Shown piece after piece: positions 29,918 through 59,936 of a stretch of DNA of 64,000 nt (the first letter of the stretch is position 1; every line of letters begins with the position of its first letter). The notes below the pieces were generated by a model. It was not told where the DNA came from. It saw only the letters and a list, made by a program, of their open reading frames with translations, and searched no databases. The stretch comes from Escherichia coli (lineage in GTDB: Bacteria; Pseudomonadota; Gammaproteobacteria; Enterobacterales; Enterobacteriaceae): the NCBI RefSeq assembly GCF_003334315.1, contig NZ_QOWR01000019.1. One strand, given 5' to 3'. Both the position numbers and the translations under genes were made by a program.

Positions 29918-31860
29918 CGCCTTTGCTCGAATTAAAGGATATTCGTCGCAGCTATCCTGCCGGTGATGAGCAGGTTGAGGTGCTGAAGGGCATCAGCCTC
30001 GATATTTATGCGGGTGAGATGGTCGCGATTGTTGGCGCTTCGGGTTCCGGTAAATCGACCCTGATGAATATTCTCGGCTGTCTGGATAAGGCCACCAGCG
30101 GCACCTATCGCGTCGCCGGTCAGGATGTTGCCACGCTGGACGCCGATGCGCTGGCGCAACTGCGCCGCGAGCATTTCGGCTTTATTTTCCAGCGTTACCA
30201 TTTGCTTTCGCATTTAACCGCCGAGCAGAACGTTGAAGTACCCGCCGTCTATGCTGGTCTTGAGCGGAAACAGCGACTGCTTCGTGCCCAGGAGTTGCTG
30301 CAACGGCTGGGGCTGGAAGACCGTACAGAGTATTATCCGGCACAGCTTTCGGGTGGTCAGCAACAGCGCGTCAGCATCGCGCGGGCATTGATGAACGGTG
30401 GTCAGGTAATTCTTGCCGATGAACCAACCGGCGCACTGGACAGCCATTCTGGCGAAGAGGTGATGGCGATCCTGCATCAGCTGCGCGATCGCGGGCATAC
30501 GGTGATTATCGTCACCCACGATCCGCAGGTCGCTGCTCAGGCCGAGCGGGTGATCGAAATTCGCGACGGCGAAATTGTGCGCAATCCTCCCGCCATTGAA
30601 AAAGTGAATGTTGCTGGCGGGACGGAGCCTGTTGTCAACACGGTGTCTGGCTGGCGGCAGTTTGTCAGCGGTTTTAACGAGGCGCTGACGATGGCATGGC
30701 GGGCGCTGGCAGCGAATAAAATGCGTACTTTACTGACCATGCTGGGGATTATTATCGGTATTGCGTCGGTGGTTTCCATTGTCGTGGTGGGTGACGCCGC
30801 CAAACAAATGGTGCTGGCGGATATTCGTTCTATTGGTACGAATACTATTGATGTCTATCCCGGGAAAGATTTTGGCGATGACGATCCGCAATATCAACAG
30901 GCGCTGAAGTACGACGACTTAATCGCCATCCAAAAACAACCGTGGGTCGCCTCAGCCACACCTGCCGTCTCGCAAAACCTGCGCCTGCGTTATAACAATG
31001 TTGATGTTGCTGCCAGTGCCAATGGCGTGAGCGGCGATTATTTTAATGTCTATGGCATGACTTTCAGTGAAGGGAACACCTTTAATCAGGAGCAGCTGAA
31101 CGGTCGTGCGCAGGTCGTGGTTCTCGACAGTAATACTCGCCGCCAGCTTTTCCCCCATAAAGCAGATGTGGTTGGCGAGGTGATTCTGGTCGGCAATATG
31201 CCCGCCAGAGTCATTGGTGTGGCGGAAGAAAAACAGTCGATGTTTGGTAGCAGTAAAGTGCTGCGTGTCTGGCTACCTTACAGCACGATGTCCGGGCGAG
31301 TTATGGGCCAGTCGTGGCTTAACTCCATTACTGTCAGGGTGAAAGAAGGATTTGACAGCGCCGAGGCGGAACAGCAACTCACGCGTTTACTTTCACTGCG
31401 CCACGGAAAGAAGGATTTCTTTACCTGGAACATGGACGGCGTCTTGAAAACTGTTGAAAAGACCACACGTACTTTACAACTGTTTCTGACGCTGGTGGCG
31501 GTGATTTCGCTGGTGGTGGGTGGTATTGGTGTAATGAATATTATGCTGGTGTCAGTGACCGAGCGGACACGGGAAATTGGCATTCGCATGGCTGTAGGTG
31601 CGCGAGCAAGCGATGTTTTGCAACAGTTCCTGATCGAAGCCGTACTGGTTTGCCTGGTCGGTGGCGCGTTGGGAATAACACTGTCACTGTTAATTGCTTT
31701 CACCTTGCAGCTTTTCTTACCCGGCTGGGAGATTGGTTTTTCACCGTTGGCACTGCTGCTGGCGTTTCTCTGCTCGACGGTCACCGGGATTTTATTTGGA
31801 TGGTTACCCGCACGAAATGCGGCACGACTGGATCCAGTAGATGCTCTGGCACGAGAGTAA
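29914..31860 (+). CDS. macB: Macrolide export ABC transporter ATPase/permease MacB
   Basis: 648-aa ORF; N-terminal ABC ATPase ([17 protein letters not shown]) fused to a C-terminal FtsX-like permease; ATGA overlap with macA. Confidence 0.95.
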
Positions 31861-42906: not shown

Positions 42907-45900
42907 TTGAGCCAGGAATACACTGAAGACAAAGAAGTCACATTGACAAAGTTAAGTAGCGGCCGCCGCCTTCTGGAGGCGTTGCTGATCCTTATTGTCC
43001 TGTTTGCCGTCTGGTTGATGGCTGCCTTACTAAGCTTTAACCCTTCGGACCCCAGCTGGTCGCAAACGGCCTGGCATGAACCTATCCATAATTTAGGTGG
43101 GATGCCCGGTGCGTGGTTGGCAGATACGCTGTTCTTTATTTTTGGCGTGATGGCTTACACCATTCCCGTCATTATTGTCGGCGGTTGTTGGTTTGCCTGG
43201 CGTCATCAGTCCAGCGACGAATACATTGATTATTTTGCCGTTTCGCTACGCATCATTGGCGTTTTGGCGCTCATCCTTACCTCCTGTGGTCTGGCGGCAA
43301 TCAACGCTGACGATATCTGGTATTTTGCCTCCGGTGGCGTCATTGGCAGCTTACTAAGCACTACGCTACAACCACTGCTACACAGTAGCGGGGGAACTAT
43401 TGCGCTGCTCTGCGTTTGGGCAGCGGGCCTGACGTTGTTCACCGGTTGGTCATGGGTGACCATTGCTGAAAAACTCGGCGGCTGGATTTTAAACATTCTC
43501 ACCTTCGCCAGTAATCGTACCCGTCGCGATGATACCTGGGTCGATGAAGATGAGTATGAAGACGACGAAGAGTATGAAGATGAAAATCACGGCAAACAGC
43601 ATGAATCACGCCGTGCCCGTATTCTTCGCGGCGCGCTAGCGCGTCGTAAACGGTTGGCGGAAAAATTCATTAATCCGATGGGGCGGCAAACAGACGCTGC
43701 GTTGTTCTCCGGTAAGCGGATGGATGATGACGAAGAGATTACCTACACTGCACGCGGTGTGGCTGCCGACCCGGACGACGTCCTATTTTCGGGCAATCGT
43801 GCAACGCAGCCAGAATATGACGAATACGATCCATTATTAAACGGTGCGCCAATTACCGAACCTGTCGCTGTAGCAGCTGCTGCTACCACGGCGACACAAA
43901 GCTGGGCTGCGCCGGTTGAACCTGTGACTCAGACGCCGCCTGTTGCCTCTGTTGATGTTCCACCTGCGCAACCTACAGTAGCCTGGCAGCCTGTACCGGG
44001 TCCACAAACGGGAGAGCCGGTTATTGCTCCTGCACCGGAAGGTTACCCACAGCAGTCACAATATGCGCAGCCTGCATTGCAATATAATGAGCCGCTGCAA
44101 CAACCAGTACAGCCGCAGCAGCCGTATTATGCACCTGCAGCTGAACAACCTGCGCAACAGCCGTATTATGCCCCTGCGCCAGAACAACCGGTGGCAGGTA
44201 ACGCCTGGCAAGCCGAAGAGCAGCAATCCACTTTTGCTCCACAGTCTACATACCAGACTGAGCAAACTTATCAGCAGCCAGCCGCTCAGGAGCCGTTGTA
44301 CCAACAGCCGCAACCCGTTGAACAGCAGCCTGTTGTGGAGCCTGAACCCGTTGTAGAAGAGACAAAACCCGCGCGTCCGCCGCTTTACTACTTTGAAGAA
44401 GTTGAAGAGAAGCGAGCCCGTGAACGTGAACAACTTGCGGCCTGGTATCAACCGATTCCAGAACCGGTTAAAGAACCAGAACCGATCAAATCTTCGCTGA
44501 AAGCACCTTCTGTTGCAGCAGTACCTCCAGTAGAAGCCGCTGCCGCTGTTTCCCCGCTGGCATCTGGCGTGAAAAAAGCGACACTGGCGACGGGGGCTGC
44601 CGCAACCGTTGCCGCGCCAGTCTTCAGTCTGGCAAATAGCGGTGGACCGCGTCCTCAGGTCAAAGAGGGGATTGGTCCGCAGTTGCCACGACCGAAACGT
44701 ATCCGCGTGCCAACTCGTCGTGAACTGGCGTCTTACGGTATTAAGCTGCCCTCACAGCGTGCGGCGGAAGAAAAAGCCCGTGAAGCCCAGCGCAATCAGT
44801 ACGATTCTGGCGATCAGTACAACGATGATGAAATCGATGCGATGCAGCAGGATGAACTGGCACGTCAGTTCGCCCAGACACAGCAGCAACGCTATGGCGA
44901 ACAGTATCAACATGATGTGCCCGTAAACGCAGAAGATGCAGATGCTGCGGCAGAGGCTGAACTGGCTCGTCAGTTTGCGCAAACTCAACAACAACGTTAT
45001 TCCGGCGAACAACCGGCTGGGGCGAATCCGTTCTCGCTGGATGATTTTGAATTTTCGCCAATGAAAGCGTTGCTGGATGATGGTCCACACGAACCGTTGT
45101 TTACGCCAATTGTTGAACCTGTACAGCAGCCGCAACAACCGGTTGCACCGCAGCAGCAATATCAGCAGCCGCAACAACCAGTTCCGCCGCAGCCGCAGTA
45201 TCAGCAGCCACAACAGCCGGTTGCGCCGCAGCCACAATATCAGCAGCCGCAACAACCGGTTGCGCCACAGCAGCAATATCAGCAGCCGCAACAACCGGTT
45301 GCGCCGCAGCAGCAGTATCAGCAGCCACAACAGCCAGTTGCGCCACAACCGCAGGATACCCTGCTTCATCCGCTGTTGATGCGTAATGGCGACAGCCGTC
45401 CGTTGCATAAACCGACGACGCCGCTGCCTTCTCTGGATTTGCTGACACCGCCGCCGAGCGAAGTGGAGCCGGTAGATACCTTTGCGCTTGAACAAATGGC
45501 TCGTCTGGTGGAAGCGCGTCTGGCTGATTTCCGTATTAAAGCCGATGTCGTCAATTACTCTCCGGGGCCGGTTATCACTCGCTTTGAACTTAACCTGGCT
45601 CCTGGCGTAAAAGCGGCGCGCATTTCTAACTTGTCACGGGACCTTGCCCGTTCACTTTCGACGGTGGCGGTGCGTGTCGTTGAAGTTATTCCTGGCAAAC
45701 CCTATGTAGGTCTGGAGTTACCAAATAAAAAACGACAAACCGTTTATCTGCGCGAAGTTTTGGATAACGCCAAATTCCGCGATAATCCGTCGCCATTAAC
45801 CGTGGTGCTGGGTAAAGATATCGCCGGTGAGCCGGTGGTTGCCGATCTGGCGAAAATGCCGCACTTGTTGGTTGCGGGGACTACCGGTTCCGGTAAATCT

Positions 45901-58338: not shown

Positions 58339-59247
58339 TTATTGTGGTCGGTGACGCTGACTCTGGCAGATCTGACCCGTTTTTACATAATCGAGAAATG
58401 CGCGCAAGCCGCAGGACATATACTGGCGGTTTGGATAATAGATCTGGAAGCCTGGACGCTCTGTGCTCCAGTCTCCCAGTACACATTCTAAACGACCAGT
58501 ATCAAGGTACTCCTTGATCTGTTCATAGAGCAGATACCCGATACCAGCACCCATCAAAACGGCCTCCAGTTCAGCATCAACATCATCCAGAATGATATTT
58601 CCTGCGACAGCAATTTCCAGCTCCTTTGCAAATTGCTAGTGGAAAGGTTTGCCGCTGGGATAACGAAAAACAACACATTGATGATTAAGCAGATCATGAG
58701 GATGGCGGGGTTTGCCATATCTTGCAAAGTACTCTGGCGTTGCTGCTACACATAATTTCACTGGCGGGCCGATCGCCACGCTGATCATATCTTTTTCGAC
58801 GATGCCACTAAGTCGAACGCCAGCGTCAAAGCCCTGTTGGACGATATCGACAAGAGAGTCGTCAGTTGTGAGCTCGACTTTAATATCAGGATATTCACGT
58901 GTGAAACCAACCAGTAAAGGCATTAAAAATATACGTGCAGCTACCCGGGCGGCATTGATTTTGAGCGTTCCTGTCGGTGTCAGACGAAAATCATTCATCT
59001 CATCTAACATGATCTGAATTTCGTCGAAAGCTGGGCGCAATCGTTCATAGAGATTAGAACCCGCTTCCGTTAACGATACGCTTCGGGTTGTCCGATTGAA
59101 TAAGCGAATTTTAAGACGTTGTTCCAGTGTTTTAATACTATGGCTAATGGCGGACGAGGATAAGCCTAATTCATCGCCCGCTGCACGAAAGCTTTGATTA
59201 CGAGCCACGGCAAAGAAAGTGGCAAAGTCAGACATATTCATCCGCAT
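58339..59247 (-). pseudogene. ycaN: LysR-family transcriptional regulator ycaN interrupted by an in-frame TAG (amber) codon
   Basis: Two same-frame ORFs, 58636..59247 (HTH plus N-terminal part, ends ...RYPSGKPFH) and 58339..58557 (C-terminal part). The frame is open between them except for TAG at 58636-58638 (minus strand). 203+1+26+72 = 302 codons, equal to the intact YcaN length I recall. Confidence 0.8.
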
Positions 59248-59346
59248 TAGTGAAAATCCTTCATTAACTCATCCTGAATCATCACGTTTACAGGATTATG
59301 CCGCCTGCGTAAAGTGCGCTCCAGAACTTAACGTGGAGGTAAAATT

Positions 59347-59936
59347 ATGCAGTCTGAACGTATTTATTTGGTATGGGCCATCCTCGTCATGATTCATTGA
59401 CCGCACATATTGCTGATGCGATCCATCAGCGGGCAATGGAGCGGAAAATACAGGTGACGGAACTCGATTTATATCGGCGTAATTTCAACCCAGTGATGAC
59501 GCTGGAAGATGAACCAGACTGGAAGAATATGGATAAACGTTATTCTCCAGAGGTTCATCAGCTTTATTCAGAGCTGCTTGAACATGACACGTTAGTGGTG
59601 GTTTTTCCTCTCTGGTGGTACAGCTTCCCGGCAATGCTAAAAGGATATATTGACAGAGTATGGAATAATGGGCTGGCTTATGGAGATGGGCAGAAATTAC
59701 CATTCAATAAAGTTCGTTGGGTGGCGCTGGTTGGAGGAGACAAAGAATCATTTGTCCAGATGGGCTGGGAAAAAAATATAAGCGATTATTTGATAAATAT
59801 GTGCAGTTATCTTGGTATTGAAGATGCCGATGTCACTTTCTTGTGTAATACAGTGGTATTCGATGGGCAAGAACTTCATGCGAGCTATTATCAGTCGTTA
59901 TTATCTCAGGTACGGGATATGGTAGATACACTATAA
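59347..59936 (+). pseudogene. ycaK: Flavodoxin-like NAD(P)H oxidoreductase ycaK with an apparent 1-bp frameshift near the 5' end
   Basis: ATG at 59347 with upstream GGAGG gives MQSERIYLVWA, then a stop after 17 codons (59398-59400). The rest of the protein (HPRHDSLTAHIAD...) is in the -1 frame and in the ORF track starts only at ATG 59373 (187 aa). One extra C in the GGGCC run at about 59376-59380 would restore a 196-aa ORF with the family motif IYLVWAHP. Confidence 0.75.

Follow-up and report, generated by a model that had tools for sequence, protein, structure and literature searches.

Point lesions in both genes of the divergent ycaN-ycaK pair in a clone of Escherichia coli

A clone of Escherichia coli has been caught at a stage where both genes of a divergent pair, ycaN and ycaK, bear point lesions. 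In the stretch of DNA analysed here (the window, 64,000 nucleotides of contig NZ_QOWR01000019.1, assembly GCF_003334315.1), the gene for the LysR-type regulator YcaN is interrupted by an amber codon and the gene for the oxidoreductase YcaK has lost a single base. Both pseudogene lesions are heritable and were reproducible in independent sequencing. Together they probably reflect a two-gene module that is dispensable and has been decaying neutrally, in steps. The case is one of ordinary pseudogenisation and is nothing new in kind; it was already known in part, since RefSeq annotates the ycaK frameshift and a TGA allele of ycaN codon 204 as pseudogenes and the truncated YcaN has an accession of its own. 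The pair is of interest as a regulator and an enzyme that appear to have been eroded gene by gene, with an order of events that can be recovered from public genomes.

The decay took place in three steps. An ancestor dropped one C at the boundary of ycaK codons 11 and 12, which ends native translation after 17 codons, and the only downstream restart in ycaK would give a protein that lacks the first beta-strand of the core. A sub-lineage then gained the substitution Ala195Thr in the dead ycaK. Finally, one clone of that sub-lineage gained the change of ycaN codon 204 from TGG to TAG. The loss of both genes would have been tolerated because E. coli as a species has no need of the module.

The Gene Pair and Its Two Lesions

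The window is a segment of the E. coli chromosome that runs from the end of an IS1 element through ybjC-nfsA to pflB-focA. The gene order at the locus is ycaM-ycaN / ycaK-pflA, as in K-12, and the pair spans exactly 58339-59936 from the stop codon of ycaN to the stop codon of ycaK. The lesions were called by aligning the region to K-12 MG1655 and strain CP53. The pair resembles K-12 ycaN (b0900) and ycaK (b0901) in locus, order and intergenic region, with more than 99% nucleotide identity, but both genes are intact in K-12 whereas the window has the W204 amber in ycaN and the 1-bp deletion in ycaK. The initial annotation had described both genes as disrupted by lesions within about 750 bp of each other. 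The alignment with K-12 and CP53 confirmed both lesions, and the measured distance between them is 741 bp.

The rest of the window had been described as intact, and this description holds. The check covered 52 other annotated CDS, which were mapped from the closest complete genome, together with aqpZ. All 53 of these other whole coding genes have the expected length and no internal stop. The sole exception in the window is the IS1 end at 1-452, which lies between genes.

The ycaN pseudogene (58339..59247, minus strand) would encode a LysR-type regulator of 302 aa if intact. K-12 b0900 has the same length and is near-identical save for the stop. Alignment with K-12 and CP53 and analysis of the codons identified an amber TAG at 58636..58638 (minus strand) in place of the TGG codon for Trp204. 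The changed base is at 58637, with T in the window and C in both K-12 and CP53. In intact YcaN, the HTH_1 domain (PF00126) covers residues 7-63 and the LysR_substrate domain residues 91-290. The ORF list includes a YcaN fragment of 203 aa (58639..59247, minus strand; 58636-59247 as ORF) that retains HTH_1 and, of the effector-binding domain, the ~110 residues at its start. With a stop at codon 204, LysR_substrate is incomplete, and the ~100 last residues, which belong to the effector-binding and oligomerisation domain, are lost. The detached 3' part of the gene persists in the ORF list as a 72-aa ORF (58339..58557, minus strand) that weakly matches LysR profiles at their C-terminal end. The exact 203-aa truncated YcaN is already on record as WP_087894143.1.

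The ycaK pseudogene (59347..59936, plus strand) measures 590 bp, as against 591 bp in K-12, and would encode a Flavodoxin_2/NQO1-like NAD(P)H oxidoreductase of 196 aa if intact. The intact protein is probably a flavin-dependent NAD(P)H oxidoreductase of the quinone type. It aligns with NQO1/Flavodoxin_2 enzymes (4r81, 3lcm and KefF) at the N-terminal strand, the AHP loop and the WW-x-P motif region, with residues 2-12 placed on the N-terminal strand and AHP loop of 4r81 and 3lcm. Unlike these enzymes, the ycaK of the window is frameshifted. Alignment located the frameshift at 59375..59379 (plus strand), where GGGCC replaces the GGGCCC of intact alleles. One C is gone at the boundary of codons 11 and 12, such that the window reads GGGCCAT at 59375-59381 in place of K-12 GGGCCCAT. 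The native frame then translates as MQSERIYLVWAILVMIH and ends after 17 codons at a premature TGA (59398..59400, plus strand).

A residual ORF of 187 aa remains open in the shifted frame (59373..59936, plus strand; ORF list). It starts at an internal ATG at 59373 with no Shine-Dalgarno sequence before it. This ORF matches the NCBIfam equivalog profile NF007280 (NAD(P)H oxidoreductase) from profile position 11 on, with positions 1-10 absent, and scores ~330-331 bits where K-12 YcaK scores 354 bits and the curated cut-off is 162 bits. The part missing from the 187-aa ORF is the N-terminal beta-strand before the AHP flavin-phosphate loop. Near the other end of the gene, a G to A substitution at 59928 (plus strand) gives Ala195Thr in K-12 numbering and, by comparison with K-12, CP53 and cM2a, serves as a clone marker in the dead ycaK. 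The exact 187-aa ORF including Thr195 is on record in a large protein collection, and RefSeq labels the same ycaK allele "frameshifted" in CP53, cM2a and others.

Distribution and Order of the Lesions

Exact 57-mers across each lesion were searched in 5,426 complete E. coli genomes. Of these, 135 contain the frameshift in ycaK. The ycaN amber was found in 0 of the 5,426 and was found in draft assemblies. In a survey of related strains, such as the initial annotation had proposed, the ycaK allele turned up in finished genomes and the ycaN allele in draft assemblies and read sets.

Contigs encoding the exact truncated YcaN or the residual YcaK were fetched and aligned to the window. Both lesions together with 59928A were found in GCA_004172665.1, GCA_012531215.1, GCA_027553945.1, SRR14867000, SRR16555215 and ERR4317686. 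Over a compared length of 1.6-4 kb, each of these six records has 0 or 1 other difference from the window. The frameshift and 59928A also occur in SRR26499382 and ERR9805413, where the ycaN codon is an intact TGG; 59928A is common to haplotypes with and without the amber. In CP53 and cM2a, the two relatives that were detailed, the ycaK deletion is identical to that of the window and stands beside an intact ycaN, whereas the window adds Ala195Thr and the amber.

These intermediate haplotypes, with ycaK dead and ycaN intact, show that ycaK died first. As read from the aligned haplotypes, the ycaK frameshift came first, Ala195Thr followed, and the ycaN amber arose last, in a sub-clone. The initial annotation had treated the two lesions as independent, and the occurrence of the frameshift with an intact ycaN in CP53, cM2a, SRR26499382 and ERR9805413 agrees with this. 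Its view of the double loss as a peculiarity of this lineage did not survive, as the ycaK frameshift is inherited across a wider lineage (135 complete genomes) and knock-outs of ycaN alone also exist.

Losses of the Pair Across Escherichia coli

The full-length locus is present in ~3,320 of the 5,426 complete genomes, and intact alleles persist in most strains that carry it. A deletion of ycaN-ycaK was found in 1,049 genomes and leaves a 111-bp remnant of the 3' end of ycaN, which adjoins pflA in O157:H7. A further 1,061 genomes have no match to the pair (ycaM-ycaN-ycaK absent); in UTI89, ycaD abuts pflA. Both genes are missing in 38.9% of complete E. coli genomes. The O157:H7-type and B2/UTI89-type deletions have reached the same end state as the window, with no functional module. 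In those types, however, clean deletions have been fixed in whole phylogroups, whereas the window has point lesions in a single clone.

Because 38.9% of complete genomes lack both genes, relaxed selection on the module is supported as a feature of the species rather than of the lineage. The initial annotation had suggested relaxed selection in this lineage; relaxation itself is upheld and its restriction to the lineage is not. There is a practical consequence for work on the regulator. With the module absent or broken in roughly 40% of complete genomes, conclusions on YcaN that are based on K-12 fail for much of the species.

ycaN has also been lost by several other routes. These nulls affect the same regulator as in the window, but each is independent and the mutations differ. 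The allele L108* (TTA to TAA) was counted in at least 34 complete genomes, and the index of a contig collection lists it in 3,489 blocks. ycaK was intact in 4 of the 4 L108* assemblies examined. The L108* codon corresponds to window ~58924-58926, and gene callers yield ORFs of 107 aa and 194 aa from this allele. The allele W204 TGA (TGG to TGA) was found in three or more ycaN haplotypes, and the complete genome JNEC-KY175 has it too; ycaK is intact at 196 aa in every case. RefSeq labels this allele an "internal stop" pseudogene of ycaN. Strains with either allele thus differ from the window in their intact ycaK. Insertion sequences account for the remaining cases. IS1 interrupts ycaN in strain 2018-11-3CC and ISKpn26 does so in F1267 and a sister isolate, all within the ycaK-frameshift lineage, and IS3 lies in ycaN in a further strain, where the locus has the length of the intact K-12 one. 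The frameshift lineage alone accounts for at least three independent hits on ycaN (amber, IS1 and ISKpn26).

A mutational hot spot at codon 204 was considered from its TAG and TGA alleles and three contig breaks, and was rejected as a matter of ascertainment, because the look-up retrieves 203-aa products only. As a control, 10 hypothetical YcaN truncation products were queried, and 10 of 10 were in the collection, many of them as "partial" fragments from contig ends. Since the other truncation products are also on record, codon 204 is not special. The three draft contigs come from different haplotypes and end at window 58638/58639 inside ycaN. This shared end suggests a repeat or an IS insertion. 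One of the three, GCA_040800585.1, has an internal ycaK deletion of 402 bp (window 59484-59885). SRR20693825, which carries the ycaN TGA allele, has a 1-bp deletion at window 58170 that splits ycaM into ORFs of 39 aa and 430 aa; this split could be an error of the Logan assembly or mark another step of decay.

ycaN and ycaK as a Conserved Divergent Module

The two genes share a control region of 99 bp (59248..59346) that is identical to that of K-12. A dyad ATCCTG-N14-CAGGAT read from the sequence at 59272..59297 is a candidate YcaN operator. It is partly conserved in the intergenic alignment, and its spacing differs from the classical T-N11-A. The window matches the general arrangement of LysR-type regulators and their divergent targets in architecture, in its control region of ~100 bp and in domain composition, with a regulatory role for YcaN that is putative.

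Orthologues of YcaN with 64-79% identity were found in Pseudocitrobacter, Hafnia, Shimwellia and Serratia. Synteny analysis placed a divergent Flavodoxin_2 gene ~100 bp away in 4 of the 4 orthologues examined. The intergenic regions of the four genera share conserved blocks, including the stretch of the E. coli dyad. By this comparison, ycaN-ycaK is conserved as a divergent module in these four genera. The genes that flank the pair in Hafnia and Serratia are completely different, and the pair behaves like a mobile two-gene module.

The comparative evidence supports a putative functional link between YcaN and ycaK. YcaN most likely binds the 99-bp region and controls ycaK in response to some ligand. 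In K-12, deletion of ycaN was shown by RNA-seq to change the expression of ycaC, ycaD and focA (PMC9068703). The ChIP-exo target tables of a second study (PMC8464067) do not list ycaK, and a literature search found no published direct evidence that YcaN binds or regulates ycaK. The initial annotation had presented the pair as a regulator and its divergent target. The divergent pairing is borne out by conservation in four other genera, but the published responders to YcaN in K-12 are ycaC, ycaD and focA. As a conserved module, ycaN-ycaK provides a lead for the functions of two uncharacterised E. coli genes.

In Pseudocitrobacter and Shimwellia, the ycaN-ycaK pair lies between pflA and ycaD without ycaM. 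This arrangement points to a later insertion of ycaM, in the lineage of Escherichia, and to a deletion as the origin of the B2-type state, in which ycaD is next to pflA.

Explanations for the Double Loss

Did the death of ycaK bring about that of ycaN? A dead ycaK may have left ycaN as an orphan regulator under relaxed selection, with the second lesion as a consequence. This coupling is possible but less likely than not. It is consistent with the earlier death of ycaK, with the three or more independent ycaN knock-outs within the frameshift lineage, with the conservation of the pair as a module and with the location of two of eight private substitutions inside the pair. However, ycaN has also been lost where ycaK is intact, both through L108* (34 or more complete genomes, with draft contigs in the thousands) and through W204 TGA, and it was lost to IS3 in a strain with a locus of K-12 length. 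The frameshift also coexists with an intact ycaN in CP53 and cM2a. Because ycaN knock-outs arise beside an intact ycaK as well, no dependence of the second loss on the first could be established.

The neutral decay of a dispensable module takes both alleles to be inactive, and both are most likely null in the clone, given that the ycaK restart lacks a Shine-Dalgarno sequence and the first strand and that YcaN is short of ~100 residues. That the YcaK of 187 aa (from ATG 59373), the YcaN of 203 aa, or both might still function, for example through DNA binding that is blind to effector, is very unlikely. The 187-aa ORF is indeed still open and scores ~330 bits against NF007280, and the truncated YcaN has the whole HTH domain. 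Yet the ATG at 59373 has no preceding Shine-Dalgarno sequence, the YcaK residues that are lost make up the conserved first strand ahead of the AHP loop, and in so young a lineage an open ORF is no sign of selection. For YcaN, tetramer formation by LysR regulators requires a complete C-terminal domain. RefSeq, moreover, calls both the frameshift and the equivalent W204 TGA allele pseudogenes.

Selection for the loss is highly improbable. Inactivation of the module might have been favoured if, for instance, toxic products result from the reduction of nitro or quinone compounds by YcaK. YcaK has been treated as a candidate nitroreductase, being among seven genes deleted in strain 7NT (PMC10095097), and oxidoreductase libraries include it (PMC3596305). 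In the literature consulted, no demonstration of nitroreductase activity for E. coli YcaK was found. Other observations that would suit selection are the repeated loss of the module, an internal stop in nfsA of the relative CP53, and the IS1 element in the same window.

The IS1 end occupies window 1-452, with its terminal inverted repeat ending at ~452, 28 bp upstream of the start codon of ybjC (481). It sits between grxA and the ybjC-nfsA-rimK-ybjN operon, and IS1 at that site is absent from CP53 and cM2a. NfsA is the main nitrofuran-activating reductase, and the IS1 could alter nfsA expression. The ycaK frameshift, the silencing of ycaN and an IS1 near nfsA within the same 64 kb might then be read as a clone that sheds NAD(P)H nitro/quinone reductase capacity under selection, in a lineage that is often isolated from livestock. 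We give this reading very little credence. If it were true, the activation of nitrofuran-type or quinone toxicants by YcaK would matter physiologically. Against selection, repeated loss of a dispensable gene is the neutral expectation when the sample is very large, all 10 hypothetical truncation products queried exist in the public collection, and most strains that bear the locus keep intact alleles. Nothing points to the reversed (positive) selection that the initial annotation had allowed for.

The chance that one or both lesions are errors of sequencing or assembly is close to nil: the frameshift does sit in a short G/C run and the amber in no complete genome, but the former recurs in 135 independently finished genomes, the latter occurs with the clone-specific 59928A in at least six independent records from different projects, and the truncated YcaN has a RefSeq identifier (WP_087894143.1). 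Since six or more assemblies or read sets of independent origin share the identical haplotype, the lesions are real, error was rejected, and the caution about sequencing artefacts in the initial annotation can be lifted.

Private Substitutions and Neighbouring Changes

Over 63.5 kb, only 10 substitutions separate the window from cM2a, its closest complete genome. Eight substitutions occur in the window but in neither CP53 nor cM2a and count as private (3210, 29156, 31569, 39240, 44077, 51623, 58637 and 59928). One is intergenic (3210) and one is synonymous (in macB). The protein-altering changes are macA E119K, cydD P469L, ftsK V391L, dmsA A329V and ycaN W204*. Two of the eight fall in the 1.6-kb pair as against ~0.2 expected, which corresponds to a Poisson p of ~0.02 calculated post hoc. 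This excess weakly hints at relaxed constraint, and selection could produce it too.

G:C to A:T changes make up six of the eight. A mutator or mutagenised origin was considered from this bias and from the proportion of protein-altering changes (5 of the 6 in genes other than the dead ycaK), and was rejected because the numbers are too small and the clone is a natural one present in many data sets.

A few differences from the relatives lie outside the pair. The nfsA with the internal stop in CP53 is at 30771-31493 of the CP53 locus as fetched, and nfsA is intact in the window. In cM2a, aqpZ is interrupted by IS1 (6924-8396 of the fetched cM2a locus), and this gene is likewise intact in the window. 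ftsK shows an in-frame length difference of 12 bp from CP53 at window 44596-44607, upstream of an internally repetitive stretch (45124-45354) whose copies are ~87% self-similar.
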